DNA of 64,000 bases from a virus. Its lineage: Duplodnaviria > Caudoviricetes. Position 1 is the stretch's first letter. Every line of letters begins with the position of its first letter. The DNA lies in the IMG/VR virus record IMGVR_UViG_3300031996_000001, positions 1 to 64,000 of that record, one strand, 5' to 3'. A program made the translations under genes and the position numbers. Positions 7,824-57,814 of this stretch are shown here, one piece after another. The notes below the pieces were generated by a model. The model saw nothing but the letters and a program-made list of their open reading frames with translations, had not been told where the DNA came from and did no database searches.

Positions 7824-8096
7824 ATGACGCAGACAGGACAGCTCGTGGAGCTGAAGTGGGGCACGTTCATCGCCGACCTCGGGGACACGCCCCGGGCAGG
7901 CATCGAGCACTGGGTGGACAGCTGGAAGCTGCTGTTCCGCCAGACCGAGCCGGAGGGCATGGCCATCGTCAACCGGGTCTTCATCGGCCGCACCGGCCGG
8001 GTGGTCCTGGAGGTCCTGGCGATCGACCCCGACGCGGCCGTGGCCAAGGCCTACGAGATGTGCGACAACGAGGGACCGGAGGTGCAGCCGCTGTGA
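7824..8096 (+). CDS. Hypothetical protein, leaderless (MTQT start)
   Basis: ATG 6 nt after -10. Confidence 0.7.
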   Translation: MTQTGQLVELKWGTFIADLGDTPRAGIEHWVDSWKLLFRQTEPEGMAIVNRVFIGRTGRVVLEVLAIDPDAAVAKAYEMCDNEGPEVQPL

Positions 8097-8740
8097 CCAG
8101 GGGACTTCTGATCGTGGACGTGCAGACCGACTTCTGCGAGGGCGGTCGGCTCGGGGTCGAAGGCGGCAACGCCGTCGCGGCCGACGTGGGCAAGGTGCTG
8201 ATGGACCGCCCCGGGCTCTACACCCACATCTTCGTCAGCCAGGACTGGCACAACCCGCCGCCGGACGACAACGGCGGGCACTTCGCGCTCGACGGTCACC
8301 CGGACTTCATCAAGTCCTGGCCGGTCCACTGCGTGGCGAACACGCCGGGCTCGGACGTCCACCCGGTGCTGATGTCCGCGCTGGCCGGGCTCGGGTCTAC
8401 CGGGGGCGTGACCTACGTCCGCAAGGGCCAGGGTCGGCCGGACTACTCGGCCTTCCAGGGTCTGGTGACCAACGACGAGAGGCCGCTGACCTGGGGCCTG
8501 AGCACCCACGGCGTGACCAGCCTGGACATCGTCGGGATCGCCACCGACCACTGCGTGCTCGCCTCCGGCCGGGACGCCCTGACGCTGCTCCACCAGCACC
8601 AGGGGGCCAAGCCGGGCGGGCTGCGCGAGGTCCGGGTCGTCACCGACCTCTGCGCCGGTGTCAACCAGGACGCCAGCCGGGAGGCGCTGAAGGAGCTGGA
8701 GACCTTCGGGGTGGTTCTCACCAAGGCCCGCTACTTGTAG
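8093..8740 (+). CDS. pncA: Nicotinamidase/pyrazinamidase (isochorismatase fold)
   Basis: IVDVQTDF, QDWH, WPVHCV, K-G...YSAF, GIATDHCV: catalytic D/K/C and metal ligands. Confidence 0.88.
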   Translation: MTRGLLIVDVQTDFCEGGRLGVEGGNAVAADVGKVLMDRPGLYTHIFVSQDWHNPPPDDNGGHFALDGHPDFIKSWPVHCVANTPGSDVHPVLMSALAGLGSTGGVTYVRKGQGRPDYSAFQGLVTNDERPLTWGLSTHGVTSLDIVGIATDHCVLASGRDALTLLHQHQGAKPGGLREVRVVTDLCAGVNQDASREALKELETFGVVLTKARYL

Positions 8741-8788
8741 TCTCGGGCCGCGCGGTATCCGTGACCCCGGTACCGCGCCCACTTCATC

Positions 8789-8829
8789 GAGGGCCCGTTC
8801 TCCCAGCACACGCGGGAGGGCGGGCCCTC
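8789..8829 (+). terminator. Hairpin terminator after pncA
   Basis: GAGGGCCCG...CGGGCCCTC followed by AGTCTTT. Confidence 0.55.
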
Positions 8830-8835
8830 AGTCTT

Positions 8836-8876
8836 TGTTGACACCTGTTGACACTGTTGATAGCACATGCCATACT
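8836..8876 (+). promoter_or_regulatory. Promoter with three tandem boxes
   Basis: TGTTGACAC-C-TGTTGACAC-TGTTGATA; TTGACA-17-CATACT, then 6 nt to GTG. Confidence 0.75.
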
Positions 8877-8882
8877 CACTAC

Positions 8883-9116
8883 GTGATGACGACGCAGAGC
8901 AGTGAGGTCCTGATGATCACTTCGGTGGACGAGGTCCGGCAGCGGTTGAACTACCTCCGCTCGATCGCCGCCCAGGGCGCCTTCGAGCAGGCCCGGGTCC
9001 TGGAGCGCACGCTGTGGGACGGGGTCCTGGAGGCCATCGCCAGCTGCAACGCCCAGGCCGGATGGATCGCGGCCGAGGCGCTGAAGTCGAAGGAGATCGA
9101 CTTCCCGCGCGGCTGA
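8883..9116 (+). CDS. Hypothetical protein, leaderless
   Basis: Follows promoter; coding-like codons. Confidence 0.7.
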   Translation: MMTTQSSEVLMITSVDEVRQRLNYLRSIAAQGAFEQARVLERTLWDGVLEAIASCNAQAGWIAAEALKSKEIDFPRG

Positions 9117-9141
9117 GTCACCAGCCAGCTACAGTCAGTGA

Positions 9142-9167
9142 GAAGGCCGCCCCGTGGGGCGGCCTTC
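9142..9167. terminator. Bidirectional terminator
   Basis: GAAGGCCGCCCC-GT-GGGGCGGCCTTC between convergent genes. Confidence 0.7.
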
Positions 9168-9173
9168 GCCATG

Positions 9174-9410
9174 TCAGGCGGGCTTCTTGGCCAGCTCGGT
9201 CTTGTGGCCCTTGTGCCAGCGGTCGCGGGCGTTGCCGGTCTCCAGGTGACCGCTCAGTTCGCCGCACTCGCACAGCGCGTGGCCCTCGCCGCCGGTGCCG
9301 CCCGGTGTCAACCGCTTGACGGTGACCTGCTTCTTGCACGGGCCCTCGGTGCAGTGGATGGACGAGTAGGCCGCGCCCTCGTCCTGCAGGCCATGACCAG
9401 TCATCCGCAT
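9174..9410 (-). CDS. Small Cys/His-rich protein
   Basis: ALCECG..S.HL...W HK motif. Confidence 0.6.
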   Translation of the reverse strand: MRMTGHGLQDEGAAYSSIHCTEGPCKKQVTVKRLTPGGTGGEGHALCECGELSGHLETGNARDRWHKGHKTELAKKPA

Positions 9411-9551
9411 GGCGAAGATCGTAGGGAGACGGCTCAGATGAGCCGGTCCTCCTGGCTGGGCACCTGGCCGTGCACCATGATGCCGATCAGCGCGATCAGC
9501 CAGAGCAGGTTCAGCAGCAGCACTGGCTGGCCCTACCCATCTCTCGTGCGA

Positions 9552-9737
9552 TCAGTCGACCTTGTGTTCCGCTGCGTTCTCGATGGCCTCGCGCGGCGGC
9601 GGGAGCACGACGCCGATCAGGCTGCTCGGCTTGCGCACGGGCGGGTAGCCCCAGCTGCGCGGCTTGCGCGAGAAGACGCCCATGATCCAGGCCAGCCCCA
9701 GCACGAACGCAGCGCCACCGAGGAAGTCCCAGATCAC
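9552..9737 (-). CDS. Small membrane protein
   Basis: N-terminal TM segment; coupled. Confidence 0.6.
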   Translation of the reverse strand: MIWDFLGGAAFVLGLAWIMGVFSRKPRSWGYPPVRKPSSLIGVVLPPPREAIENAAEHKVD

Positions 9738-9934
9738 GCTGTGAGGCTATCCGCCCACTGTGCGTGAGCCAGGCGCTTGACGAGCTTGCGGGCGGCCCGC
9801 TCGCACTGCCAGCGCCAGCGGTAGGCCTCCACGATGTCCGCCGTCCGGTCTGCCCGGACGAGCATCACGAACCAGCGCCGGTCTCCTGGCCCAGCTCGCC
9901 GCACCGCCACCAGCAGCGGACGGCGGTCGCGCAT
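9734..9934 (-). CDS. Hypothetical protein
   Basis: Coupled ORF. Confidence 0.55.
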   Translation of the reverse strand: MRDRRPLLVAVRRAGPGDRRWFVMLVRADRTADIVEAYRWRWQCERAARKLVKRLAHAQWADSLTA

Positions 9935-10281
9935 CAGACCAGGATGTTGGTGACGTCGTACTGCGCGTCCATGTCCTCGAAGGAGATGACCTCCAGGGTG
10001 GGCAGCACGTAGACCCCGGTGTCAACCGGCACGCCATCGGCCCCAATGAGCTGCGGCAGCGCGTTGTTGCCCGGCGGGAACGAGATCTGGCAGCTGCCGC
10101 CCTGCTGGTTGACCCAGCTGGCCACCGCGACGGCGTTGGTGCCGTCGTAGAGGTAGGCGTTCAGCTCCGGCGTGCGGCGCCGGATGCTGATCGACTGGGG
10201 GCGAGTGGCGGGGTCGCCGATCACCGACTGGGGCGCGGCTTCGGCCGTCGCCGTGGCGGGCTTGCGGGTGCGTGCGGGCAT
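9934..10281 (-). CDS. Hypothetical protein
   Basis: Coupled ORF, coding-like codons. Confidence 0.65.
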   Translation of the reverse strand: MPARTRKPATATAEAAPQSVIGDPATRPQSISIRRRTPELNAYLYDGTNAVAVASWVNQQGGSCQISFPPGNNALPQLIGADGVPVDTGVYVLPTLEVISFEDMDAQYDVTNILV

Positions 10282-10308
10282 CAGAGGCTCCTGGTTGATC
10301 GACGGGTC

Positions 10309-10620
10309 TCAGGCCGCGACATCGGCCCAGCGGCGGCGCGTGGTGCCCCGGGGGACCGGGCCCGCGAGGACCCGGCGCTCGCGCACCGCAGCGCACAGCT
10401 CCTCGACCGTCTCAGCGCCCGCCAGCCGACGCAGCCGGTGCAGAGTGCTCCCGATGTACTCCCGGCTCACGCCGAGCCGGTCAGCGACCTCCTGGCGGGT
10501 CTGCGGGCGCTCCATGAAGGTGCACAGCACGTCCCACTCGCGCAGGTTGACGTGCAGTACCAGGGCGCCGGGTGCCGGTCGAGAGGTTCGGTAGCGGATC
10601 GGCGGGGCTGTCTGCGGCAC
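10309..10620 (-). CDS. LuxR/GerE-like HTH DNA-binding protein, leaderless
   Basis: REWDVL...TRQEVADRLGVSREYIGSTLHRLRR; TACGCT -10 six nt before GTG. Confidence 0.7.
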   Translation of the reverse strand: MPQTAPPIRYRTSRPAPGALVLHVNLREWDVLCTFMERPQTRQEVADRLGVSREYIGSTLHRLRRLAGAETVEELCAAVRERRVLAGPVPRGTTRRRWADVAA

Positions 10621-10688
10621 GCACGCAGCGTATCGACGGTCGTCCCCAGGGTTATCCACTTCCTGTTGACAACCCCGTGAATAGCGAA

Positions 10689-10716
10689 GGCCCCACCGGG
10701 GGGAATCGGTGGGGCC
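10689..10716. terminator. Hairpin
   Basis: GGCCCCACCG-8-CGGTGGGGCC. Confidence 0.55.
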
Positions 10717-11153
10717 CTGCTGGAGATCGACTATAGCCGCGTGTCGCTCCCGGGCTTGGCCGCGCCCCGGCGCTACCGTCCGGCCGATGTGCACCTTGCC
10801 CAGACGCAGAAACGGCCGGTGATCGAGTGAGCTGAGCCCACCTTCACACCGACCGTCCCACCACAGGCTTGGCCGCCCTCGTGGTGGGGACGGTACTCGG
10901 ACCCACCTGTCGTGTCACGCAGGCGGGCTTTCGGCGTGTCAACCGGCGCGTCGGGACGGTGTCGGGCTCGGCGAGGTGCACACCTTGCTCTTGGCGGTCC
11001 GGAGGACCGCTTGGCCGCCGAAGGCGGCCCATCTTCGTCTTGCGTTGAGAACTCTGGCCGTCCCCCGATACGGAGCTTGACGACAAGAGAGCGGTCCACA
11101 GGCGCCGCGTTTCCGCAGGTCAGGCGCACGACGCCTGTGGACATCCCTGTGAA

Positions 11154-12029
11154 TCAGCCGGGGAAGGCGACCTTCTCGAACTCCAGCAGCGCCTGCGCCG
11201 CCGCCGTGGCGTTCTTCCAGCCACGCGGGTGCGCGGCGAACCGGTCGACCAGCTCGCGCGGGTAGGCCGCCAGCACGTCGACCGGGGCCGGGGGAGTGGG
11301 CGTCGGCGCGGGCTGCGTGGTGGGCACGAACAGCGTCATGTCGCCCTGCTGGCTCATCAGGTAGGTCAGCGCCTTGGTGCTGAGGAAGAAGTGGCCGTCC
11401 AGGCCCCAGCCCTCGCTCCAGGAGTTGACGCACTCCCAGAGGTCGGTGTCCAGGTCGTAGCCGATGATCTCCCACTCGTGGCCGCCCCGGACGGTGCCGG
11501 TCGGGTTGACCACGCCCTTCTTGTCCGGCGTGTCCATCCCGGAGAACCAGGAGAACCCGCCGATCAGCGGACCTTCCTGGATCCCGGCGTGGGCCTCGCC
11601 GATGCTGGTGATGTGCCGGTAGCCGGAGATCCAGCCGTGCTTCTGCATGGTCTTGGCCGAGGACAGGCCGTCACTGCCGGTGTCGTCGGGCTCCCAGGCC
11701 CCCGGGTAGCTGTCGAGCCGCGTCTCCTCGCGGTAGAGCGGCTGCACCAGGTCCGTCTGCACCGAGGCGGCGGCGAGCTTGGCCTGAACGTCGGCGGGCA
11801 GCGTGGCGAACAGGTTGCCCGAGCCCAGCGCACCGAGACCGGCGTTGATCGTGCAGCTGCCCAGGTCGCCCTGGTCGAAGACCGGGATGTGTCGCTCCCA
11901 GCGCACCGTCTTCGGGGTCGCCGTCGCGCCGACGCGGAAGGCCAGCGAGCGCGGGTCGTGATGGATGTGTCGCCCGAGCCGGTGGTGCTTCTTCTTGACT
12001 TCGGGGAGGAGGAGTCTGCGGTCAGCCAT
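11154..12029 (-). CDS. Papain-like (C1) cysteine peptidase
   Basis: DQGDLGSCT, GGHE, NSWSEGWG.DGHF motifs. Confidence 0.85.
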   Translation of the reverse strand: MADRRLLLPEVKKKHHRLGRHIHHDPRSLAFRVGATATPKTVRWERHIPVFDQGDLGSCTINAGLGALGSGNLFATLPADVQAKLAAASVQTDLVQPLYREETRLDSYPGAWEPDDTGSDGLSSAKTMQKHGWISGYRHITSIGEAHAGIQEGPLIGGFSWFSGMDTPDKKGVVNPTGTVRGGHEWEIIGYDLDTDLWECVNSWSEGWGLDGHFFLSTKALTYLMSQQGDMTLFVPTTQPAPTPTPPAPVDVLAAYPRELVDRFAAHPRGWKNATAAAQALLEFEKVAFPG

Positions 12030-12074
12030 ACCGCCAGTCTCGACGGCGTTTCTGAGCAGGCTGTCCCGCTCCGG

Positions 12075-12515
12075 TTACTCCTCGAAGCCGTGCTTGAAGC
12101 GGAACTCCAGCGGCGTGATCAGGCTGCCCACGTCGGTCCAGGCCGGGACGTCCGAGATGTCGCTGTCCACCGGGGCGACCCAGACCTTGTGCGCCTTGAC
12201 GACCGTGGCCTCGCCGTTCTTGGCGAGGTCGATGCCGATGACCGTGTCAACCGGTGGCGAGCCCGGGGGAGTGCCGAGCATCCGCATCTCGAAGGGCTCG
12301 CCGAGCGCCAGCTCCAGCTGCTCGGGGTGATCCGTCGCCCAGTGCGCGACGCAGGCGACCCGGGCGGTCGACTCAGGGTTGATCGTCTCGTTGGCCCAGA
12401 CCGGGCCTGGCCCGTCGGGGTACCAGCGCAGCGGGAACCATCCGCCGGGCAGGTAGGCCGCCAGCGGGGCGCCGAAGGGGTCGTAGACCCAGTCGCACAG
12501 GACGCACTCGGTCAT
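12075..12515 (-). CDS. Hypothetical protein
   Basis: Coupled ORF. Confidence 0.6.
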   Translation of the reverse strand: MTECVLCDWVYDPFGAPLAAYLPGGWFPLRWYPDGPGPVWANETINPESTARVACVAHWATDHPEQLELALGEPFEMRMLGTPPGSPPVDTVIGIDLAKNGEATVVKAHKVWVAPVDSDISDVPAWTDVGSLITPLEFRFKHGFEE

Positions 12516-12883
12516 GCCGTGGCGACGGCGTCGTCCAGCTCCTGCTGCAGCTCCACAGGCAGAGTCTCGCCCTGCTTGACCAGCAGCCGCCGCATGAACT
12601 CCGTCCGCGCCAGGCCCTGGTAGATCGCGGTCTCACCCGAGGTCTGGTAGCCGTCGGGGTAGACGTACTGGCGGCTGACCAGGCTCATCCGCCGGTCGTA
12701 GGTGTCGTGCCGCCCAGTGCTGCAGTGCCCGCAGCTCAGCTGCCGGGTGAACTGGATGATGTCGCCCGCTGTGTTGCGCAGGATGTGGAAGTCGTGGACG
12801 TGCTTCCAGGTGTGCCCCCAGCTCTTGCACTCCAGGAAGCGCTGCTTGTACTTCGCCGGGGCGCCGTTGTACTTCTCCGCCAT
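12512..12883 (-). CDS. Zn-binding hypothetical protein
   Basis: FLEC...GH.W...CxxC...R.D...Y.YPDGY. Confidence 0.7.
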   Translation of the reverse strand: MAEKYNGAPAKYKQRFLECKSWGHTWKHVHDFHILRNTAGDIIQFTRQLSCGHCSTGRHDTYDRRMSLVSRQYVYPDGYQTSGETAIYQGLARTEFMRRLLVKQGETLPVELQQELDDAVATA

Positions 12884-13086
12884 CAGGACCTGTCCTTCGC
12901 GTCGTCGGGGACGAACAGCGCCATCGGGTGCTGGCGGATCCAGTACCGGGACTGCGGCAGAGTCGGTCGAACGGCCACCACGCCGTGGTCGGGGTGGATG
13001 ACCTCCCAGCGGACATAGCCGCCGTCCTGGATGCGGTCCACCAGGTAGCCGTCGATCTCGTGCTGCCCCGGGCCGAGCATGGTCAT
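12883..13086 (-). CDS. Hypothetical protein
   Basis: Coupled ORF. Confidence 0.65.
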   Translation of the reverse strand: MTMLGPGQHEIDGYLVDRIQDGGYVRWEVIHPDHGVVAVRPTLPQSRYWIRQHPMALFVPDDAKDRS

Positions 13087-13112
13087 GGCTTCGGCCGGTG
13101 GCGCTGCGTCAT
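13083..13112 (-). CDS. Leaderless 9-aa minigene MTQRHRPKP
   Basis: ATG 7 nt after TATTGT -10; stop overlaps next ATG (ATGA). Confidence 0.45.
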   Translation of the reverse strand: MTQRHRPKP

Positions 13113-13119
13113 GTCGGCG

Positions 13120-13141
13120 ACAATAGAACGCTATGTCAACA
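13120..13141 (-). promoter_or_regulatory. Promoter with single spacer box
   Basis: GTTGACA-8-TATTGT. Confidence 0.6.
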
Positions 13142-13169
13142 AGTCCAAGCGGGGGGTCACCCCGGCGTG

Positions 13170-13415: not shown

Positions 13416-13560
13416 CCCGTCGACTATGCCGTCCGTGTCAACGGGGTCCGGCCCCGGCAACCCTGAACCCTCGACCTCGGAAACTCTCGACTCCAGCTTT
13501 AGTCGGGGGGTCTGACCTGCACGTTTGTATCGGAACAGGATCGACTTGACGGAACGCACG

Positions 13561-13803: not shown

Positions 13804-13832
13804 GCCCCACTATGTCGCGGCGGCCATCTTGA

Positions 13833-16952: not shown

Positions 16953-16955
16953 GGC

Positions 16956-23482: not shown

Positions 23483-23698
23483 TCACTGGCTGCCACGAAC
23501 CGTGTCTACAGGGTGACCCTCGATCGGAGTGTTCCGCCGCCGCAGCAGTAGGTTGACGCCCACCGCGCCGCTGATGCAGACCGAGCAGGGCACCGTCGCG
23601 GCGTCGATGCCGAGCATCAGCCCGTAGACCAGCATGAAGACCCCGGCGAACCCGAAGATCACCATCACGTCGCACAGGAAGCGGTCCCAGGGGTTCAT
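23483..23698 (-). CDS. Small membrane protein
   Basis: Two hydrophobic segments; coupled. Confidence 0.6.
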   Translation of the reverse strand: MNPWDRFLCDVMVIFGFAGVFMLVYGLMLGIDAATVPCSVCISGAVGVNLLLRRRNTPIEGHPVDTVRGSQ

Positions 23699-25343: not shown

Positions 25344-25374
25344 GTTGACACTGTTGACACGAAGGGTGCATACT
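25344..25374 (+). promoter_or_regulatory. Promoter with tandem boxes
   Basis: GTTGACA-CT-GTTGACA; TTGACA-18-CATACT-6-ATG. Confidence 0.8.
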
Positions 25375-25380
25375 CTCCGC

Positions 25381-25641
25381 ATGGTCACTTGCCCGAGCTG
25401 CGGTCACGCCTTCCACCCGAAGGCCTGCACCCCCTGCCCACCCGAACCGCCCGTCGGCACCTGGATGAAGGACCGCTTCGGCGGCACCACCCAGCGCCGC
25501 GTCTACCAGGGCCACGACGGCTGGGGGCAGCCCGGCGTCTGGAACTACGGCGTCTGGGAGTCCATGTGGGCCGCGCGCGGCCCCTACACCGAGTGCGGCC
25601 CCTGGGGCGCCGAACTGACCACCAACCAGAAGGAGGCCTGA
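25381..25641 (+). CDS. Zn-ribbon hypothetical protein, leaderless
   Basis: CPSCGHAFH start. Confidence 0.65.
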   Translation: MVTCPSCGHAFHPKACTPCPPEPPVGTWMKDRFGGTTQRRVYQGHDGWGQPGVWNYGVWESMWAARGPYTECGPWGAELTTNQKEA

Positions 25642-26038: not shown

Positions 26039-26256
26039 TCAAGGCCGTCGCCACTCAGAAGGACGGCAGCACGGCGGTGTTCCTGGGGCTGTCCCGGGAG
26101 AACGTCGACCGGCTGCTGGCCAACCAGCCGATCGCGGTCAAGCTGCGCGAGCTGCACCCGGACCTGCCCGACCTCACGGTCATCCTGCTGGGCGGGGAGA
26201 CCGAGGCGGACATCGCCGAGGACCTGCGGGTGCTCGGTCCGATGCCCTCTAGTTGA
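26035..26256 (+). CDS. Hypothetical protein
   Basis: FLGLSRENVDRLLANQPI motif; coupled. Confidence 0.7.
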   Translation: MIKAVATQKDGSTAVFLGLSRENVDRLLANQPIAVKLRELHPDLPDLTVILLGGETEADIAEDLRVLGPMPSS

Positions 26257-26282
26257 CATTGTTGACAAGCGTGCCATACCAT
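26252..26282 (+). promoter_or_regulatory. Promoter with tandem boxes
   Basis: GTTGACA-TT-GTTGACA; TTGACA-18-TACCAT-6-ATG. Confidence 0.8.
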
Positions 26283-26288
26283 GAGGGC

Positions 26289-26588
26289 ATGACGCAGATG
26301 GATGGCCCCAGCCTCGATGACCTCCTCCCCTTCCGGCACGTCGCTCAGGAGCAGCAGGACCTGATCCTCGGCCTGGACCACCTGGACGACGGCGAGAAGG
26401 CCAGCGTGCTGAGCACCCTGGACGACATCGCCAGCGGTGACTACTTCTGGCCGCGCACCGAGGAGCAGCTGCACGACTCGATGGCCGACGTCTACGGCCT
26501 CGTGCGCGGCTCGGACGGCCTCTGGCGGGACGCGCTGGTGCCCGATGGCAAGGGCGGCTGGGTGCTCGACCCGTCGGTGGTCGCGTGA
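26289..26588 (+). CDS. Hypothetical protein, leaderless (MTQ start)
   Basis: ATG 6 nt after -10. Confidence 0.65.
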   Translation: MTQMDGPSLDDLLPFRHVAQEQQDLILGLDHLDDGEKASVLSTLDDIASGDYFWPRTEEQLHDSMADVYGLVRGSDGLWRDALVPDGKGGWVLDPSVVA

Positions 26589-32398: not shown

Positions 32399-32589
32399 CA
32401 GACGGTCCGCAGGTACTCGGCGAAGCCCTCGTGGTCGCCCTCGTAGCTGCCCAGGCCGAAGGCCAGGCTCGGCAGGTCCTCGCCGTAGACCTTGCCGTCG
32501 CGGCGGGCCACACGGACGGTGTTCAGGTCGTTCTCCCGCAGGAAGTCGGCGGTGACCTGGCTGGTGGGGATGATCCCTGTCTGCGTCAT
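32398..32589 (-). CDS. Hypothetical protein, leaderless (MTQT)
   Basis: CATACT-6-ATG. Confidence 0.7.
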   Translation of the reverse strand: MTQTGIIPTSQVTADFLRENDLNTVRVARRDGKVYGEDLPSLAFGLGSYEGDHEGFAEYLRTV

Positions 32590-32595
32590 GCCCTT

Positions 32596-32625
32596 AGTAT
32601 GCCATGCCTGTCAACAGTGTCAACA
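32596..32625 (-). promoter_or_regulatory. Promoter with tandem boxes
   Basis: GTTGACA-CT-GTTGACA...CATACT. Confidence 0.8.
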
Positions 32626-34418: not shown

Positions 34419-34531
34419 CGGTGGCCCCGCAGCGTCCAGAAGACGTGCACGGCGAAGAACGGGACCGCGTGCTGGGTCCACCAGGGCTGCGCCCGGTCGG
34501 CGGCGGGGTCGGGGAACACTGTCTGCGTCAC
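34415..34531 (-). CDS. 38-aa leaderless peptide (MTQTVFPD...)
   Basis: TATAGT-6-GTG; not in ORF track. Confidence 0.55.
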   Translation of the reverse strand: MTQTVFPDPAADRAQPWWTQHAVPFFAVHVFWTLRGHR

Positions 34532-34537
34532 GCATTG

Positions 34538-34569
34538 ACTATAAGTCGGGAGTGTCAACAGTGTCAACA
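34538..34569 (-). promoter_or_regulatory. Promoter with tandem boxes
   Basis: TTGACA-18-TATAGT; boxes at 34553 and 34562. Confidence 0.8.
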
Positions 34570-36255: not shown

Positions 36256-36570
36256 TCAGGCGTCGTCGTCCTCGTCGTCCTCGATCTGGATGCCGGGCAT
36301 CCCGGGCACGCTCACGCCCTTGCGGGCGTAGGTCTCGGCCTGGGTGGGCTTGGCGCCCTCGTGCAGGACGGTGATCTGGTCCAGCGGGATCAGGTAGTCC
36401 CGGCTGCCCTTGACCACGATCGCGGGCAGCGGGCCCTCGGGGTACACGGCCAGCAGCTCGTAGGGCCCCCAGGTGCGGCTGGACTTGGTCCGCACGGTGA
36501 CCTCGGAGCCGATCAGGCTGGCCAGGAAGGCGATGGACGTGGTGGGCGTGTCGTTGCTCGTCTGCGTCAT
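36256..36570 (-). CDS. Small beta-barrel (Sm/SH3-like?) protein, leaderless (MTQT)
   Basis: FLASLIGSEVTVRTK...LIPLDQITVL; TATAGT-7-ATG. Confidence 0.6.
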   Translation of the reverse strand: MTQTSNDTPTTSIAFLASLIGSEVTVRTKSSRTWGPYELLAVYPEGPLPAIVVKGSRDYLIPLDQITVLHEGAKPTQAETYARKGVSVPGMPGIQIEDDEDDDA

Positions 36571-36577
36571 GGGTTGA

Positions 36578-36606
36578 ACTATAGCGGACTTGTCAACTAC
36601 GTCAAC
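36578..36606 (-). promoter_or_regulatory. Promoter with tandem boxes
   Basis: GTTGACG-TA-GTTGACA...TATAGT. Confidence 0.75.
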
Positions 36607-36750
36607 ACGGGGGTGCACGAAGGGCCCGGCTACCAGGGCTTGAACGCCTTGGGCCGGGCCCTCCTGGCGACGCCATGCACGCCGCCTGCCGCTGCGACGG
36701 GATGCACCCGGCGCATGGAAACCGGGGAGTGCCGCCGGGTTGCGAACCCG

Positions 36751-36823
36751 CAGGGCTGGAAGGACTCGAACCTCCGACACGCGGCTTTGGAGACCACTGC
36801 TCTGCCAGCTGAGCTACAACCCT
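36751..36823 (-). tRNA. trnW: tRNA-Trp (CCA)
   Basis: Cloverleaf: acceptor AGGGTTG/CAGCCCT, D-arm TAGCTCAGCTGGCAGAGC, anticodon loop CTCCAAA, GGTTCGAGTCC; no encoded CCA; TATAGT at 36923-36928 upstream. Confidence 0.93.
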
Positions 36824-44179: not shown

Positions 44180-44500
44180 TCAGGCAGCGTGGCGCGTGGG
44201 CTCGCTCGGCTGCCTGTAGATCGGCGTGCCCTGCGACTCGGCGATCTCGCGGCACCGCGAGCACGGCGCCCGCCGCTCCAGCTCGGCCAGCAGGCCCTCG
44301 CCGAACCTCGACCCCTCGGGGTCCCAGGTGTCAACCACGGCCAGCGTGATGCCGCCGGAGCACCGGGCCCGGATGTCGTCGTAGGCGCCGACCGCGCCGG
44401 GTGCCTGCAGCCGCGAGCGGTGCTTGTCGACCAGGTGCTTCTTGCCGCCGTAGCCGCTGCCCCAGACCGACCGGTCCAGCTGCGCCTGCGTCATGCCCAT
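44180..44500 (-). CDS. Hypothetical protein
   Basis: K.HLV...ARC...CSRC. Confidence 0.6.
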   Translation of the reverse strand: MGMTQAQLDRSVWGSGYGGKKHLVDKHRSRLQAPGAVGAYDDIRARCSGGITLAVVDTWDPEGSRFGEGLLAELERRAPCSRCREIAESQGTPIYRQPSEPTRHAA

Positions 44501-49082: not shown

Positions 49083-49086
49083 CCCA

Positions 49087-51918: not shown

Positions 51919-53855
51919 CCGCAGTCCTGAGCAAGCCGGTTGACACGAGCAAGTTGGCGTCCGCGACCCCGGGGATCTACCCCTACGAGCTGACCAGCGG
52001 CAACTACGCCGGGCGGATGGCCGTCTACGTCCCGCCGACCTACATGCCGCGCGTCCAGCAGATCCCCGGCGCGCGGTACTCCAAGGGCGACCAGGTCTGG
52101 ACGCTGCCCAAGGCCTACCCGGCCGTGCTCTCGCTGTCGGCGATGGCCAAGGAGACCGGGCTGCGGATCCTGCCGCACCCGGAGCTGAACGCCTGGGTGA
52201 TCGAGCAGAGCAAGCACTGGAAGGCCCTGCGCGCCCTGTCGGCCGCGTACACGCCCGGCGCGACCAAGGGCCCCGACGACCTGTTCTACCCGCACCAGGA
52301 GGACGACGGGGAGTGGTTCGCCTACGGCGACGGCGTCGAGCCGATGCGCGCCCGGCTGCTGCTCTCGGAGACCGGCATCGGCAAGACCGCCGGGACGATC
52401 AACGGGATGCGCAAGCTGGGCCTGCCCGCCGAGGGTCGGCCGGTGCTGATCGCCGCGCCCAAGAAGACCCTGAAGACCGCGTGGGTGGACGACCTGGAGC
52501 AGTTCCTGCCCGGCGCCGTGGTGTCCCTGGCGCGCGGCACGGTGACGCAGCGGCGCAAGGCCATCCAGAAGGTGGCCGACGGTGAGGCGAACGTGCTGGT
52601 CATCGGCTGGGACTCGCTGAAGACCCACACCCGCTTCGCCGCGTTCCCCGGCCAGGCGCTGAAGAAGTGCGAGGCCTGCGGCGGGCCCAAGCAGTCCGAG
52701 GAGAACGCCGTCTCCGAGACCCGGTGCCAGAAGCACGAGAAGGAGCTGAACGCCATCGACTGGGCCCTGGTCGTCGGCGACGAGCTGCACCGGGTGATGA
52801 ACGCGACCAGCCAGACCACGATGGCGCTCTGGGGCCTCGTGCGCTCCGCGCCGGAGGCGTTGCGCTGGGGGCTGACCGGCACGCCCGTGTCAACCGAGGT
52901 CGAGCAGGCCTGGACCCTGCTGCACTACGCCGACGCCGAGGCGTGGCCGGTGAAGTCCGCCTGGGTCGACTACTACGCCGAGTCCGGCTACAACTACTCC
53001 GGCTACTACGAGACGTCCGGCTTCAAGCCCGCGCGCCACCAGGAGTTCCAGGACGTCTTCAGCGGGATCACCCGGCGTCGCCTGAAGGCCGAGGTGCTGG
53101 ACCTGCCGCCGCTGCTGATGGGTGGCGGGCTGATCCGCGAGGTTGACATGGCCAAGGAGCAGGCCGCCGCGTACAAGCAGATGCGCGAGGAGATGCTGCT
53201 GAAGGTCTCCGAGGGCGTCATCGTGGCCGCCAACCAGATGGTCGCCGCCGGTCGGCTCACCATGCTGGCCAGCGCCACCGGCTACCCGGAGGACCCCGAG
53301 GCGACCGGCGCGAGCACCGAGGACGACGTCCCGGTGAAGATGCTGCTGCGGATGCCCAGCGGGAAGATCGACGCGGTCATCGAGGACCTGAAGTCCGGCG
53401 AGTTCGGCACCGACTCCGTGGCCATGAGCCTGGAGTCCCGGCGGCTGCTGCGGCTGCTGGAGGGCCAGATGATCGAGGCCGGGATCGGCCCGGACCAGAT
53501 CGCGGTGATCGCCGGGGACATGAGCCAGGCGGCCTGTGATCAGGCGATCTACGACTTCCAGGACGGTAAGAAGCGCTACATGCTCTACACCTACGCGGCC
53601 GGAGGCACGGGCGTCACGCTGACCGCCGCGCGCTGGCTGCTGCGGGTCCAGCGGTCCTGGAGCCCGATCCTGTGGAAGCAGGGACTGGACCGGGTGCACC
53701 GCATCGGCTCGGAGCGGCACGACTCGATCAACGTGGTCGACTACATCACCAGCGGGACGATCGAGGAGAAGCAGATCGACCGCCACGGCGAGAACACCCA
53801 CCTGCTGGAGCAGGTCGTCCAGGACAAGCCGAAGCTGAGTGCCCTGTTCGAGTGA
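51915..53855 (+). CDS. SNF2-family helicase
   Basis: ETGIGKT, VGDELHR, LTGTP, GGTGVTLTAA, Q..DRVHRIG; CxxC Zn-finger insertion. Confidence 0.9.
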   Translation: MTAVLSKPVDTSKLASATPGIYPYELTSGNYAGRMAVYVPPTYMPRVQQIPGARYSKGDQVWTLPKAYPAVLSLSAMAKETGLRILPHPELNAWVIEQSKHWKALRALSAAYTPGATKGPDDLFYPHQEDDGEWFAYGDGVEPMRARLLLSETGIGKTAGTINGMRKLGLPAEGRPVLIAAPKKTLKTAWVDDLEQFLPGAVVSLARGTVTQRRKAIQKVADGEANVLVIGWDSLKTHTRFAAFPGQALKKCEACGGPKQSEENAVSETRCQKHEKELNAIDWALVVGDELHRVMNATSQTTMALWGLVRSAPEALRWGLTGTPVSTEVEQAWTLLHYADAEAWPVKSAWVDYYAESGYNYSGYYETSGFKPARHQEFQDVFSGITRRRLKAEVLDLPPLLMGGGLIREVDMAKEQAAAYKQMREEMLLKVSEGVIVAANQMVAAGRLTMLASATGYPEDPEATGASTEDDVPVKMLLRMPSGKIDAVIEDLKSGEFGTDSVAMSLESRRLLRLLEGQMIEAGIGPDQIAVIAGDMSQAACDQAIYDFQDGKKRYMLYTYAAGGTGVTLTAARWLLRVQRSWSPILWKQGLDRVHRIGSERHDSINVVDYITSGTIEEKQIDRHGENTHLLEQVVQDKPKLSALFE

Positions 53856-53862
53856 TCACAAA

Positions 53863-53892
53863 GTTGACAGAGTTGATCGTTCGCCATACTCT
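53863..53892 (+). promoter_or_regulatory. Promoter with box
   Basis: GTTGACA-GA-GTTGATC; TTGACA-17-TACTCT-7-ATG. Confidence 0.75.
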
Positions 53893-53899
53893 GGGCCGC

Positions 53900-54211
53900 A
53901 TGACCACAGCTACAGCAACGGTGACCGAGCAGGAGCCGCGCAAGACGCGCTCTCGCGTCCTGTTCGAGCCGTTCGAGCAGGTGGCCGAGACCGTCCGGGC
54001 CAACCCGGGTCAGTGGCACCTGGTCGGCGGCGGACCCAAGGAGCGCTACGGCGTCTTCAGCCAGACCGCCTACCGGATCCGGCGCGGTGACATCGCCGCG
54101 TTCCACGAACCTGTAGGTGGGACGTGGGAGGTCCAGGTGTCAACCGACACGACCGTCCCGCGCGAGTACCCGGTGGAGGTCTACCTCCGCTTCGTGCCCG
54201 TCAAGGGCTGA
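53900..54211 (+). CDS. Hypothetical protein, leaderless
   Basis: LRANPGQW-type motif; EVY.RF. Confidence 0.7.
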   Translation: MTTATATVTEQEPRKTRSRVLFEPFEQVAETVRANPGQWHLVGGGPKERYGVFSQTAYRIRRGDIAAFHEPVGGTWEVQVSTDTTVPREYPVEVYLRFVPVKG

Positions 54212-54227
54212 CCAGGCGGTACCTCAC

Positions 54228-54259
54228 GAGGCCCGTCCCGCGTTTGCGGGGCGGGCCTC
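54228..54259 (+). terminator. Hairpin terminator
   Basis: GAGGCCCGTCCCGC-GTTT-GCGGGGCGGGCCTC. Confidence 0.7.
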
Positions 54260-54342
54260 TCGCGTATCCAGGCGGGACAGCAGCGCGTTACCACATCGGT
54301 ACGGTGTGTGCCGATCCCAGCTTCCCGACGTGAGGTGCCCCC

Positions 54343-54681
54343 ATGACTGCTCGCAAGCCCGCCGCCAAGGCCGACGAGACCCCCGCCGAGGCCCCCGCCG
54401 AGGCTCCCGAGGTCCAGGCCGACGAGGCTCCCGAGGCCCCCAAGGGCGTCGACACCAAGGCCCTGGGCGAGTCGCCCGAGGTCACCGACGGTGTCTCGGC
54501 CGACGTGCAGGCCGTGCGCGACGCGCACGCCAACCTGCCGGTGCTGGAGGTGCTGCCGACCCACGCCGCCGAGGAGACGCAGTCCGAGGTGCTGGAGCGG
54601 CTGAGCCGCGAGCGCAAGGCCCAGCAGCTCGCCTCGGACCTCGTGCCCGACAACGCGCCCGCCGCGCCCGACGCCGAGTAG
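54343..54681 (+). CDS. Acidic Ala/Glu/Pro-rich protein
   Basis: RBS GAGGT; EAP repeats. Confidence 0.65.
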   Translation: MTARKPAAKADETPAEAPAEAPEVQADEAPEAPKGVDTKALGESPEVTDGVSADVQAVRDAHANLPVLEVLPTHAAEETQSEVLERLSRERKAQQLASDLVPDNAPAAPDAE

Positions 54682-54689
54682 CGGTTGAC

Positions 54690-55010
54690 ATGACCGACCC
54701 GACGCCGTTCCAGCCGGACCCGGTGCCGACGCCGACGCCGGTGGTCGACGCGGGCCAGGTCTCTGGACTGATCAGCGCGCTGATCATCACCGTGGTGACC
54801 TTCGTCTTCGAGGTCGTCGGCCACGCTGACACCAACGCGCTGATCCAGACCGTCACCGCTGTCGTGGGTGCGGCTGCCGCCCTGGTCACCTACTTCACCC
54901 AGGTCGCGCAGGCGAAGAAGGCAGCGGCCAAGGTGACGCCGCTGGCCAAGCCCAGGGACAACCTGGGCCGTCGTCTCATCCCCCACCCCGAGGATGTCCG
55001 GGCCGCCTGA
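54690..55010 (+). CDS. Putative holin
   Basis: Two TM segments plus C-terminal KVTPLAKPRD..G..L.P typical of actinophage holins. Confidence 0.65.
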   Translation: MTDPTPFQPDPVPTPTPVVDAGQVSGLISALIITVVTFVFEVVGHADTNALIQTVTAVVGAAAALVTYFTQVAQAKKAAAKVTPLAKPRDNLGRRLIPHPEDVRAA

Positions 55011-55675
55011 TGACCACCCTGCTGCACCGCACCTCCAACGCCTGGCAGACGTTGTGCGCTCTGAAGCTGCGAGGCCCGTGGCGGCCCGGCGCGCACAACA
55101 TCGTCGTGCTGGTCGTCCAGATCGCTTCGATCTGGGGTGCGGCGCAGCGGGGCATGGACTACTTCCAGTCGGCCGCGCACGACGGCCAGGTGCTGTCGGG
55201 CATCGAGCAGTCCATCCCGCTGCAGTGGCTGGGGCTGAGCTTCCTGATCCCGGCCGGGATCGCGTTCTTCGGCCTCGCCAGCGGCTGGGCCCGCCCGCTG
55301 GTCGTCGGCCACCTGCTGATCGGCACCACCTACCTGGTGCTGGGCATCACCTACCTGCGCCAGTCCGAGGTCGCTGACGTGCCGCTGGCCACCGGAGGCT
55401 CGGCGCTGCTGCTGCTCGCCGCGTTCCTGCTGGCCACGAGCTTCCGCAAGATCCCCGACGCCGTCGCCCTGATCACCGGCATGGCCGCGATGATCGTCGG
55501 CGGCTGGCTGGCCGCCAAGGGGCTCGGCTTCGGCTACCGCACCGGCAACGGCTTCCTGGTCGGCGCCGTCAACCACTTCGCCTTCGGCTTCGGCACCCAG
55601 GTGATGGCCCACCGCGAGCGAGTGCTTCGTCGGGAGGACGAAGACGACTTGGCGGCCCTGAAGGCCGCGCTGTAG
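55010..55675 (+). CDS. Multi-pass membrane protein
   Basis: About six TM segments; coupled. Confidence 0.75.
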   Translation: MTTLLHRTSNAWQTLCALKLRGPWRPGAHNIVVLVVQIASIWGAAQRGMDYFQSAAHDGQVLSGIEQSIPLQWLGLSFLIPAGIAFFGLASGWARPLVVGHLLIGTTYLVLGITYLRQSEVADVPLATGGSALLLLAAFLLATSFRKIPDAVALITGMAAMIVGGWLAAKGLGFGYRTGNGFLVGAVNHFAFGFGTQVMAHRERVLRREDEDDLAALKAAL

Positions 55676-56121
55676 TGGGCGATCTCCCCAGCAATCTGCT
55701 GGACAGCGTCAAGGACAACCCGGTCGTCCAGTGGGCAGTGATCGGCTTCGTCGTCGTCTTCCTGACCACCAACGCAGCGACCCGGCTGAAGGGCCCCGTC
55801 GGCGGAGCCGCCCGCGCGCTGCGGCAGCTCGGTGCCCGTCGTGTCAACCGCGAGGTGGCGGAGCGCCAGGCCGCTCGCCAGGCCCTGATCGACCAGGCCA
55901 ACGAGGGCCGCGAGTACGTCGCGCGCGAGCTGAAGGAGCTGAAGGACAAGGTCGAGGAGCTGCTGATCGACCGGGAGGCGCTGGCTGACCTGGTCGACCA
56001 GCACCTGGGCTGGGACTACGACCGCAAGCAGCAGCTGATCGAGCTGGGCGTGCCCGTCCACCAGATCCCGCCCGCTCCCCCGCTGCGCGTCATCAAGAAC
56101 ACGCAGGTCAGCACCGCGTAG
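55675..56121 (+). CDS. TM plus coiled-coil lysis-cassette-like protein
   Basis: N-terminal TM segment, heptad region, C-terminal IPPAPPL. Confidence 0.65.
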   Translation: MGDLPSNLLDSVKDNPVVQWAVIGFVVVFLTTNAATRLKGPVGGAARALRQLGARRVNREVAERQAARQALIDQANEGREYVARELKELKDKVEELLIDREALADLVDQHLGWDYDRKQQLIELGVPVHQIPPAPPLRVIKNTQVSTA

Positions 56122-56130
56122 AGGCCCCGT

Positions 56131-56160
56131 GTTGACAGAGTTGACACGGGTTGCTATTCT
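56131..56160 (+). promoter_or_regulatory. Promoter with tandem boxes
   Basis: TTGACA-17-TATTCT-6-ATG; boxes at 56131 and 56140. Confidence 0.82.
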
Positions 56161-56166
56161 TCTTGC

Positions 56167-56418
56167 ATGACGCAGACGCCCCAACACCGACTACGCCTCA
56201 ACGGATTCTCCCGCGAGAAGGCCGCGCTGATCCGGCAGATGGAGGACGACGGCTGGACCGGCCGCGTCTCCACCCGGGGCCACGCCCTCATGCGCTCGCC
56301 TGACGGCACCATGACCTGCTCCGTGGCCCCCAAGACGGGCAGCCCGACCAGGGACATGGGCAACTCCCAGATGATCTACAAGCGGTGGAAGCGCTCCATC
56401 ACCGCTCCCTCCCGCTGA
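56167..56418 (+). CDS. HicA-like toxin/mRNA interferase, leaderless (MTQT)
   Basis: GW.....RGH....PDG......P.T.S..R..GN. Confidence 0.65.
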   Translation: MTQTPQHRLRLNGFSREKAALIRQMEDDGWTGRVSTRGHALMRSPDGTMTCSVAPKTGSPTRDMGNSQMIYKRWKRSITAPSR

Positions 56419-56437
56419 CAGACAGGACGACGCAGAC

Positions 56438-57298
56438 ATGTGGATCTTCACCGAGCACGGCTTCTTCACCTTCGTGGTGGACCGCAAGGACCCCAGCTAC
56501 GTCTGGCTGCGGGCCCGGATGCGTGAGCACCTGGAGGACAACTTCCCCGGCATCGAGGTCACCGAGCACCCCGGCGCCGACTACTTCTTCCGGGCCAAGG
56601 TGACCCGCGCCTACCTCGCCGAGCAGATGTCCCGGCTGGTCATGGACGCGAACATCACCAGCCACTTCAAGGACGAGATGAACCGCCGCGCGGCCAAACC
56701 GCGCTGGGGCTCGATCTCCCAGGTGATGTACGCGGTCTGGAACGGCGCCGCGCAGTGGCAGCCCTACGCGCCGTACTCCAAGGTGCCCAGGCCCGAGCCC
56801 AAGCCGTTCGTGCCTGCCGCCAAGGGCACCCAGGGCGCGCTGTTCCCGGACTACTCCCGCTACGGCGGCAGCCGGGCCGGGGACTACGACTGGACCACCG
56901 GCACCTGGAAGGGTGGTACCAAGGTCGGGGAGAGCGCGCCGGACCCCCGTGTCAACCAGAGCACGGACATCGCCCCGGAGCGGGCCCGGCAGATCGCCGA
57001 CATGCTCGACGGTCTCACCGAGGACGACTTCGAGGAGATCTGGCCGACGCTCTCCGCCGACGAGCAGGCCGCGTACCTGGACTACCAGGAGGAGCTGGCG
57101 GACGCCTGGGATGCCGGGGATGCACCCCAGGCGTCCGTCTCCACCCCGGCAACGCCTGCCCCGGTGTTCTCCCACACCGAGGAGGACCACGGGGCCCAGG
57201 CACGGCTGGAGGAGTGGTTCACCTCCCGCAAGGAGAACGCCTACGCCGCGCCCAAGGGCGGCGGGCGGCGGCGAGGGCGGAAGCGCCGCAAGAAGTAG
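56438..57298 (+). CDS. Conserved hypothetical protein with acidic/basic tail
   Basis: MWIFT.HGFF.....LRAR...HL.....ADY.FRA....FKD. Confidence 0.75.
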   Translation: MWIFTEHGFFTFVVDRKDPSYVWLRARMREHLEDNFPGIEVTEHPGADYFFRAKVTRAYLAEQMSRLVMDANITSHFKDEMNRRAAKPRWGSISQVMYAVWNGAAQWQPYAPYSKVPRPEPKPFVPAAKGTQGALFPDYSRYGGSRAGDYDWTTGTWKGGTKVGESAPDPRVNQSTDIAPERARQIADMLDGLTEDDFEEIWPTLSADEQAAYLDYQEELADAWDAGDAPQASVSTPATPAPVFSHTEEDHGAQARLEEWFTSRKENAYAAPKGGGRRRGRKRRKK

Positions 57299-57328
57299 CC
57301 TGGAGACCTACCCCGCCAGGTAGTAGAG

Positions 57329-57360
57329 GGCCCCCGGACTCCGGTCCGGGGGCCTTCTTG
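57329..57360 (+). terminator. Intrinsic terminator
   Basis: GGCCCCCGGAC-TCCG-GTCCGGGGGCC-TTCTTG. Confidence 0.75.
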
Positions 57361-57407
57361 TCGTCCACCCTTCGTAGGGTCCGGTTGACGCGCCGTCACC
57401 CTGTCTT

Positions 57408-57438
57408 GTTGACATTCGTTGACATAGCGGCGCATACT
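57408..57438 (+). promoter_or_regulatory. Promoter with tandem boxes
   Basis: TTGACA-18-CATACT-7-ATG; boxes at 57408 and 57418. Confidence 0.82.
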
Positions 57439-57445
57439 CGGAGCC

Positions 57446-57814
57446 ATGACGCAGACGATCGCCAGACCCGGCACCTACATGAACACCGTCCCGGCGCGGG
57501 TCTCTGACCGCGTGCAGATGGCCCAGACCGTCGGCTACCGCGACTCCCACCTCGGCCTCCGGCTCTACCGCTACGACCTGGTCAGCGTGGCCGAGGCGCG
57601 CGAGGAGTTCGGCGCGACGCTGGAGGACGCCCGGTCCTTCGTCGGCAACTCGACCTGCCAGGAGTGCGGGCTGGCCGCCTGCGAGCTGCGCGAGTGCTTC
57701 GAGTGCGAGACCAAGGGCTGCGCCTGCCTGATCCGCGAGGGAGACCACGATGACCACTACTGGTGCGCTGACTGCACCCGCCCCTGCTACGGCCGCTGCT
57801 GCACCGACGACTGA
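57446..57814 (+). CDS. Cys-rich hypothetical protein, leaderless (MTQT)
   Basis: Several CxxC motifs. Confidence 0.65.
   Translation: MTQTIARPGTYMNTVPARVSDRVQMAQTVGYRDSHLGLRLYRYDLVSVAEAREEFGATLEDARSFVGNSTCQECGLAACELRECFECETKGCACLIREGDHDDHYWCADCTRPCYGRCCTDD

Follow-up and report, generated by a model that had tools for sequence, protein, structure and literature searches.

The stretch of DNA analysed here (the window, 64,000 nt) is the first 64 kb of one 82,691-bp viral contig with 70% G+C, IMG/VR record IMGVR_UViG_3300031996_000001. It encodes a large terminase (terL, 1817–3406), a PhoD-domain tail protein, a family A DNA polymerase, an SNF2 helicase, a PD-(D/E)XK nuclease, ThyX, dCTP deaminase and a CHAP endolysin (3688–4587), and this set of terminase, tail, replication and lysis genes identifies the contig as a tailed phage. 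Two of its features are described below: an 11-nt sequence, ATGACGCAGAC, which begins with the start codon and is shared across a phage clade by about ten unrelated transcription units per genome (the tag), and a GC-rich stem-loop between the endolysin gene and terL, the loop of which is complementary to the tag. Neither megablast nor tblastn returned a match in the GenBank phage collection. The best cellular relatives of the dCTP deaminase all belong to the Actinomycetota (Rhodococcus, Dietzia and Prauserella, ~58% identity), and a sequencing-run lookup found the phage DNA in soil metagenomes; judged by these two observations, the host is most likely a soil actinobacterium.

The core motif (A/G)TGACGCAG (RTGACGCAG) is present in 11 copies in the window compared with 2.07 ± 1.32 in shuffled sequences, and 0 of 100 shuffles reach 11. 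Eight of the copies open reading frames, at 7824, 26289, 56167 and 57446 on the plus strand and at 13112, 32589, 34531 and 36570 on the minus strand. All eight are situated 6–7 nt 3′ of a −10 box of the TANNNT or CATACT type and have TTGACA boxes upstream, in agreement with an initial annotation of this DNA, which had listed the same starts. That annotation had also pointed out that seven of them continue with A, which is correct (13112 is the exception), and its two variant starts are real: the start at 8883 reads GTGATGACGACGCAG behind a triple-box promoter, and that at 10620 reads GTGCCGCAGACAG behind TACGCT-N6. The remaining three copies are in-frame internal codons and not leaderless starts. 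One (44486..44494, minus strand, ATGACGCAG) probably represents codons 3–5 of a gene starting at 44500 that overlaps the upstream gene through TGATG; it has no promoter and lies outside the tag system. The other two read GTGACGCAG and are chance copies, one inside the SNF2 helicase gene (52542..52550, plus strand) and one near the end of gene 60357–61121 (60426..60434, minus strand). Copies of GACGCAG immediately before ATG 56438 and ATG 30580 and just before the ribosome-binding site of 46241 had been taken as part of the system. They are present, but only in the number expected by chance: GACGCAG alone occurs 31 times against 24.3 ± 5.0 expected and is not enriched, and we have dropped this part of the proposal.

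The tag is the downstream end only of a promoter cassette of ~50 bp, a point that the initial annotation had missed. The promoter repeated in the window is of the host sigma-70/sigma-A type and consists of a box block, GTTGACAnnGTTGACA, N8-9, cATACT, N6 and C, with ATGACGCAGAC directly after it. A pattern search yielded three related viral contigs of 85–90 kb (G001–G003), each with many full cassettes. Together with the phage of the window (G000), they constitute our four full genomes. Their proteins are only 35–75% identical to those of G000, and unconstrained intergenic DNA should therefore be randomised between them. A metagenome search based on terL gave four more lineages (L187, L189, L191 and L192; terL 70–88% identical), and the fragment G011 added nothing to the comparison. 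All genomes of the clade are metagenomic, and since the eight lineages are related, counts across them are not independent events.

We aligned 42 cassettes from the four full genomes at the start codon. The consensus is gtGTTGACActGTTGACA-N8-9-gCATACT-N5-C, followed directly by ATGACGCAGAC. Two GTTGACA boxes, 9–10 bp apart, precede the −10 box. The distal one lies 17–18 bp from the −10 box and thus serves as the −35 element, and the proximal one lies inside the spacer. The information content of positions +1 to +11 equals that of the −10 box; from +12 on it is at background, and the spacers between the blocks are unconserved. The base at −1 is C in 42/42 cassettes, and +1 is A or G. The distance from the −10 box to the start codon is 6 nt, rarely 7, leaving no room for a ribosome-binding (Shine–Dalgarno) site.

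On the plus strand of the window, the cassette at 7788..7834 is composed of TTGACG, 17 nt with two inverted TGTCAAC boxes, TATGGT-N6 and the tag ATGACGCAGACAG, and it opens a 90-amino-acid open reading frame (ORF) at 7824–8096; a minus-strand box pair at 7795–7810 is divergent from this promoter. The triple-box promoter at 8837..8897 (plus strand) has CATACT-N6 and the variant start GTGATGACGACGCAGAG, with one extra ACG codon, in front of a 77-amino-acid ORF. The variant tag GTGCCGCAGACAG at 10608..10660 (minus strand), 6 nt after TACGCT and with an inverted box upstream, starts an ORF of 103 amino acids. At 13083..13149 (minus strand), TTGGACttGTTGACA-N8-TATTGT-N7 and the tag ATGACGCAGCGC precede a 9-codon mini-ORF, the stop codon of which overlaps (ATGA) the start of gene 12883–13086. 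Six double-box cassettes complete the set: 26252..26299 (plus strand, CATACC-N6, tag ATGACGCAGATG, 99-amino-acid ORF), 32579..32625 (minus strand, CATACT-N6, ATGACGCAGACAG, 63 amino acids), 34521..34568 (minus strand, TATAGT-N6, GTGACGCAGACAG, 38 amino acids), 36560..36606 (minus strand, TATAGT-N7, ATGACGCAGACG, 104 amino acids), 56131..56177 (plus strand, TATTCT-N6, ATGACGCAGACG, 83 amino acids) and 57408..57456 (plus strand, CATACT-N7, ATGACGCAGACG, 122 amino acids).

A separate sigma-70-type scan of 55900–58200 placed promoters at 56132–56160, 57409–57438 and 58045–58074, three sites compared with 0.1 expected, all ending 6–7 nt before an ATG. Hexamer spacing (16–18 bp in promoters of this type), start position, the pyrimidine at −1 and the purine at +1 are those of a primary-sigma promoter with a leaderless start. 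Moreover, C at −1, A at +1 and T at +2 fit the Y-R-Y 'start' element, which fixes the transcription start 7–8 nt after the −10 box (PMC12641261). In the spacer of the 7824 promoter the two boxes are inverted, so that the start motif follows the transcription start and not the orientation of the boxes. From these sequence features, we infer leaderless messenger RNAs (mRNAs) for the tagged genes, with the A of ATG as the first transcribed base.

The tag is conserved on genes that have nothing else in common. Its downstream proteins fall into ~35 unrelated families in the four genomes, with no paralogues within a genome, in keeping with the initial annotation, and orthologues differ in having the tag, which has been gained or lost between genomes. 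Two copies open only 9-codon mini-ORFs (13112 here and G003_8286). Threonine codon 2 is ACG in 33/38 cassettes, whereas ACG makes up 31% of Thr codons genome-wide in the same genomes (P = 2e-12). Codon 4 starts with A whatever the residue (T, N, S or M), which keeps A at +10, and the rare codon ACA, use of which had already been noticed there, accounts for 8/26 Thr codons at this position compared with 1.9% genome-wide. The tag is also relatively A-rich for a genome with 70% G+C, and position +12 escapes the bias for G or C at third codon positions (GC3 bias). Codon bias, the varied residue 4, the unrelated families and the mini-ORFs indicate selection on the nucleic acid; on this evidence, codons 2–4 are held constant as nucleotides and not as amino acids.

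In five actinobacterial genomes (31 Mb), stand-ins that share only the phylum with the presumed host, TANNNT-N6-ATGACGCAG was found once, and behind a −10 box the ratio of ATGACG to ATGACC is 65:96. This is ordinary codon use, and the codon preference that the initial annotation had proposed comparing with host genes is thus not shared by these genomes. CATACT-N5-CATGACGCAGA has 47 matches in 596 Gb, which is approximately chance by our estimate, versus ~20 in 0.34 Mb of clade phages. Among the 47 are a few real leaderless actinobacterial genes, and neither a regulon nor a prophage. Since real leaderless genes of actinobacteria have the same 5′ end, this end is compatible with expression, but it is an uncommon choice. 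A side observation concerns a gene for a ~140-amino-acid Nocardia orthologue (L196–L227), in which CATACT-N5-C is followed by ATGACGCAGATCGC in at least 10 species; its start is leaderless and of the host type. The full cassette pattern gave three single matches only in GTDB genomes, none of them actinobacterial, and we take these as chance. The outgroup phage G009, which is of the same size and has a terL 43% identical, possesses leaderless-type promoters with diverse starts, without GTTGACA boxes and without the tag, and relatives at 53–57% terL identity likewise lack both. By these comparisons, the tag arose within this clade and is specific to it.

Each of the four full genomes contains exactly one perfect-stem hairpin with the complement of the tag core in its loop. 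In the window, this hairpin (3597–3631, minus strand, 12-bp stem, 11-nt loop) lies between the endolysin gene and terL, where the endolysin operon ends, and its loop carries GACGCAGACAG. Read on the minus strand, the loop is CUGUCUGCGUC and complements +3 to +13 of the tags at 7824, 32589 and 34531. For complementarity to cassette 5′ ends, the hairpin ranks first among 68–101 hairpins per genome, both orientations included (tied first in G002), and the match measures 11 nt in G000, 14 nt in G001 and 7 nt in G002 and G003. Its position is syntenic, 0.2–1 kb upstream of terL in the four full genomes. L187, L189, L191 and L192 have the stem-loop upstream of terL as well (up to 2.8 kb away in L192), so that it is present in 8/8 lineages, without exception on the strand of terL. 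In the outgroups, the loops of hairpins upstream of terL are unrelated and lack the motif.

We compared the eight stem-loops one by one, as MAFFT misaligned the loops and the RNAalifold consensus was uninformative. Read in the terL sense, the loops are CUGUCUGCGUC (G000), UCCUGUCUGCGUCG (L187), CCAGGUCUGCGUCACAGCCCC (G001), UCAACUGCGUCUGUAGG (G002), AACUGCGUCUGUA (G003), GUCCGGUUCUGCGUCCC (L189), ACCUUCUGCGUCAUCAGAUG (L191) and UAUCUGCGUC (L192). The heptamer CUGCGUC, the complement of +3 to +9, is invariant in all eight, whereas stems and loop flanks differ. In five loops it is preceded by U, which pairs with the conserved A at +10. Beyond this, the extensions are lineage-specific, and complementarity ranges from 7 to 14 nt across 8/8 lineages. 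The G000 loop pairs with ..ACAG, and three G000 tags read ACAG while none has ACC at codon 4; the G001 loop pairs with ..ACCUGG, and most G001 tags read ACC, one of them ACCTGG. The L189 loop pairs with GACGCAGAACC, which is exactly its own neighbouring tag, and the L191 loop covers the AUG itself. A second CUGCGU(C/U) is found in the single-stranded 5′ flank in G002, G003 and L192. Folding prediction leaves the loops exposed, and the predicted duplexes with tagged 5′ ends have energies of −13 to −22 kcal/mol, compared with ~−7 kcal/mol for untagged cassettes and shuffled loops.

The stem-loop is oriented as it would be if transcribed from the upstream operon. In four lineages the site has no gene running towards it from the other side, so that transcripts of the antisense reading alone are to be expected. 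A tag opens the first gene 3′ of the stem-loop in G001, G002, L187 and L189; in G001, G002 and L189, a promoter of the cassette type separates the hairpin from terL.

The model that we derive from these sequences is as follows. The cassette, with TTGACA at −35, a second GTTGACA box in the spacer, cATACT at −10, six bases, and C and A on either side of the transcription start (−1 and +1), would be read by host RNA polymerase with the primary sigma factor. The start codon would be the 5′ end of the transcript and ATGACGCAGAC positions +1 to +11 of a leaderless mRNA, so that the tag would act as a shared 5′-terminal RNA address on about ten unrelated transcription units per genome. The stem-loop, at the presumed 3′ end of the lysis-operon transcript just upstream of terL, would present the anti-address, and its loop would pair with +3 to +9 of the tag, and with up to +1 to +15 in some lineages. 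By covering the 5′ AUG region, this pairing would shut off or otherwise co-regulate all tagged messages at the level of translation or stability. Recognition of a leaderless mRNA depends on its free 5′ AUG, and a duplex that starts at +1 to +3 should therefore block 70S binding; alternatively, pairing may alter decay that depends on the 5′ end. Untagged cassettes, e.g., that of the conserved gene 53921–54211, would escape this control. The reverse direction, in which tagged 5′ RNAs or abortive products act on the stem-loop, is possible but fits less well, because the pairing involves the loop, the hairpin is not a canonical terminator and a promoter precedes terL in several lineages.

The initial annotation had already proposed an RNA or initial-transcribed-sequence element that controls a regulon at translation initiation. 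What survives of this is an element of unrelated, predicted leaderless genes that is selected at the nucleotide level, now with independent support for its RNA nature from a complementary loop; the leadered GACGCAG copies are not supported as part of it, and pairing could equally affect RNA stability or termination rather than translation initiation. In our judgement, the chances that tag and loop form a functional RNA–RNA pair are evenly poised. The fuller proposition, in which the identical 11-nt address in codons 1–4 and the single anti-address loop at the boundary between lysis and packaging genes constitute a trans-acting RNA switch specific to leaderless translation that would turn all tagged messages off (or on) by covering the 5′-terminal AUG, is tentative, and we place it somewhat below the pairing itself.

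Several points weigh against the pairing. In G002 and G003 it comprises only 7 nt, and an 11-nt loop cannot form a full 11-bp helix unless part of the stem opens. The stem-loop also fails a scan for terminators of the Escherichia coli type (the loop is longer than 8 nt and a T run is lacking), and because of this failure we can only infer that it marks the 3′ end of a transcript. Since the lineages are related, the loop could have been conserved under another constraint; the match between tag and loop would then rest mainly on one shared heptamer and the lineage-specific extensions, with a probability by chance that we roughly estimate at ~1e-3 to 1e-4. Furthermore, no RNA sequencing run lists the phage, the genes were called with a crude in-house codon-bias caller, and the host comparison relates to the phylum only.

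The tag could also act in transcription only, with +1 to +11 tuned for start choice, open-complex stability or promoter escape by the host (or a phage-modified) RNA polymerase, or as the site of a phage DNA-binding protein, and the stem-loop would then be unrelated or a second protein site. Y-R-Y elements are known to fix the start site (PMC12641261), the tag stands in a fixed register with the −10 box and the invariant C at −1, it is found with a family of promoters whose additional GTTGACA boxes suggest a dedicated regulator, and ATGACG and the box have TGAC in common. Nevertheless, the outgroup phage and actinobacterial genes have leaderless promoters without the tag, and a single-stranded complementary loop with constant orientation and lineage-specific extensions in 8/8 lineages is left unexplained. 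We also know of no RNA polymerase contact that reads +4 to +11 sequence-specifically, and we consider a role confined to transcription unlikely. A purely cis-acting translational optimum, in which the start ACGCAGAC with codons 2–4 ACG-CAG-AC(N) best suits, as an unstructured CA-rich context, the 70S ribosome on a 5′-terminal AUG in this host and no trans factor is involved, appears to us somewhat less likely again. The tag is indeed A-rich for its genome, with +12 escaping the GC3 bias, the tagged mini-ORFs that overlap the next ATG resemble translation-initiation modules, and a few real actinobacterial leaderless genes, e.g., the Nocardia orthologue family, have the same 5′ end. However, the candidate leaderless genes of the five actinobacterial genomes use ACG and ACC in the ordinary way and almost never ACGCAG, the tag has no special complementarity to two actinobacterial 16S ribosomal RNAs (rRNAs), phage G009 does without it and the complementary loop is again not accounted for.

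That repeated cassettes reflect descent only, as expected of a mobile or duplicated promoter–start unit on unrelated genes, or that the peptide MTQT is selected, Thr at position 2 being common in actinobacteria, is highly improbable. Only the functional blocks are conserved while the spacers are random, and this holds across 35–75% protein identity; as the cassette spacers differ, recent recombination of near-identical segments is excluded. Synonymous ACC is avoided (P = 2e-12), and residue 4 varies while A at +10 is kept. We therefore rejected the mobile-cassette and N-terminal-peptide readings on the spacer and codon evidence. Separately, we tried a downstream-box pairing of the tag with 16S rRNA and rejected it too, the best duplexes with the two actinobacterial 16S rRNAs having −10.8 and −11.2 kcal/mol versus a shuffled mean of ~−12 kcal/mol.

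Small structured phage RNAs that act as antisense regulators include P1/P7 c4 RNA, P4 CI RNA, P22 sar and lambda OOP. The pairing proposed for tag and stem-loop is similar to the c4/CI type, in which a small structured phage RNA pairs through exposed bases near translation starts and controls a group of genes. In accordance with an antisense regulator, exposed complementarity of at least 7 nt to the target start is found (7–14 nt, 8/8 lineages). However, c4/CI-type RNAs have one or two sites on one leadered transcript, whereas the targets predicted here are the extreme 5′ ends of ~10 leaderless mRNAs, and the site is written into codons 1–4.

The closest parallel for the tag itself is the SAS/ESAS repeat of Cluster K mycobacteriophages, a short asymmetric repeat at the starts of 11–19 unrelated non-structural genes (Pope et al. 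2011, PMC3203893). SAS is kept across subclusters, is essentially absent from the host and prefers ATG, and its proposed role is in the initiation of translation, by way of an RNA or protein of the phage or the host (PMC3203893). The tag likewise stands at unrelated gene starts, is clade-wide and is all but absent from actinobacterial genomes (same-phylum stand-ins only). However, SAS is a 13-bp sequence, GGGATAGGAGCCC, situated 3–7 bp upstream of the start codon of leadered genes and including the Shine–Dalgarno core, whereas the tag is part of the coding sequence from the start codon on, forms one unit with a promoter and is predicted to be leaderless, without a Shine–Dalgarno sequence. It also has a complementary stem-loop partner, and none has been reported for SAS. 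Given these differences in sequence, position and leaderless context, the tag is not a member of the SAS family.

In phage T7, abortive 5′ RNAs from phi10 act in trans on the downstream hairpin Tphi and time the later genes (Lee, Nguyen and Kang 2010, PMC2952870). There as here, the initial transcribed sequence has its complement in part of a hairpin. The T7 pairing, however, involves the 5′ half of the terminator stem and the phage's own polymerase, and promoter-less genes follow; in our phage, the predicted pairing is with the loop (and at most 2 nt of the stem), and the hairpin is not a canonical terminator. Loop pairing, the promoter before terL in G001, G002 and L189 and the failed terminator scan thus speak against antitermination by abortive transcripts of the T7 type.

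Leaderless mRNAs make up a quarter or more of the messages of actinobacteria, mycobacteria included. To our knowledge, almost nothing is known about the post-transcriptional control of sets of leaderless genes, because they have no 5′ untranslated region to carry signals. In the phages described here, the first codons themselves appear to encode the signal, and the anti-sequence that matches it is found at another site of the genome. If real, the pairing would provide a simple and portable control of leaderless translation or stability and show how a phage co-ordinates many small genes of unknown function. In full-text literature searches, we came across no account of a 5′ tag that lies in the coding sequence and is shared by leaderless phage mRNAs, nor of a loop that matches such a tag. 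What is new is the complementary loop in all eight lineages of the clade, which points to an undescribed RNA–RNA control of leaderless messages, and the pair of tag and loop offers a concrete model by which the start-associated repeats of other actinobacteriophages, so far unexplained, may be understood.

The window also contains cassettes of the same family without a tag. They are located on the plus strand at 25344..25391 (position 25381, ATGGTCACT), 53863..53910 (position 53900, ATGACCACA, with the variant proximal box GTTGATC) and 58035..58091 (position 58081, triple-box, ATGATGATC); orthologues of the last are tagged in G001 and G002. Gene 53921–54211 encodes the most conserved small protein (96 amino acids, 73–76% identical in all four genomes), and the cassette of its orthologues is untagged in 4/4 genomes, with the proximal box GTTGATC or GTTGACC. 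Both 9-codon leaderless mini-ORFs that are opened by a tag, 13083–13112 in the window and one near 8286 in G003 (both minus strand), have stop codons overlapping the ATG of the next gene (ATGA or TGATG), as if the tag were a start module coupled to the downstream gene.

GTTGACA occurs 92 times in the window (e.g., 272–63044) compared with 3.9 expected, and coding as well as intergenic DNA contains it. Both orientations relative to transcription are represented without bias, the G000 copies being 41 co-oriented, 35 anti-oriented and 35 intergenic. This enrichment is common to G001–G003 and is not seen in outgroup phages, and GTTGACA looks like the site of some DNA-binding protein. The operators and stoperators of Cluster A mycobacteriophages (L5 gp71) are short sites that overlap the −35 TTGACA and are scattered about once per gene. 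They are also mentioned in PMC3203893. The GTTGACA boxes, as distinct from the tag, resemble these L5-type sites in overlapping the −35 TTGACA and in being dispersed through the genome; unlike them, they are 7–8 bp long, are arranged in tandem at 9–10 bp in promoters and show no orientation bias, and no repressor was identified for them. Pfam and PHROGs searches with the first genes of cassettes and the conserved small proteins gave no DNA- or RNA-binding candidate besides a weak Sigma70_r4 hit (E = 5e-5, just below the Pfam cut-off) in ORF 10309–10620 (minus strand). Sigma region 4 is the part that reads TTGACA; however, this ORF is unlikely to encode the box-binding protein of the clade, as it has no orthologue in G001–G003.

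In several cassettes, the two boxes lie in the loop of a longer inverted repeat (e.g., CCCGTG..CACGGG, up to 11–13 bp), as seen at 56126–56150 in the window, ~84957–84989 in G001, 23489–23517 in G002, 8702–8738 in G003 and ~6350–6395 in L192, and such a promoter-embedding hairpin could also end the upstream transcript. Many cassettes of the four genomes have (G)ACACGC and/or GTGTC 10–20 nt upstream of the distal box, at about −55 to −45; these partly mirror GACAC of the box and may represent an extra half-site. The start of terL itself (3406, minus strand) reads GTGTCAACC, which holds an inverted box, 6 nt after TAGCCT, and L187 has the same start; terL may thus be leaderless from a weak promoter.

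An Rfam scan of the window gave only tRNA-Trp above the gathering score, and the stem-loop and cassettes match no Rfam family. Between this tRNA gene (36750–36823) and the cassette at 36570, we found a further hairpin with a 22-nt loop (36621–36662, minus strand), which has a counterpart in G001 at 77281–77322. The two loops, TACCAGGGCTTGAACGCCTTGG in G000 and TACCGAGGCTTGAACGCCTTGG in G001, are nearly identical despite the distance between the genomes, and this hairpin may be a second conserved RNA element.

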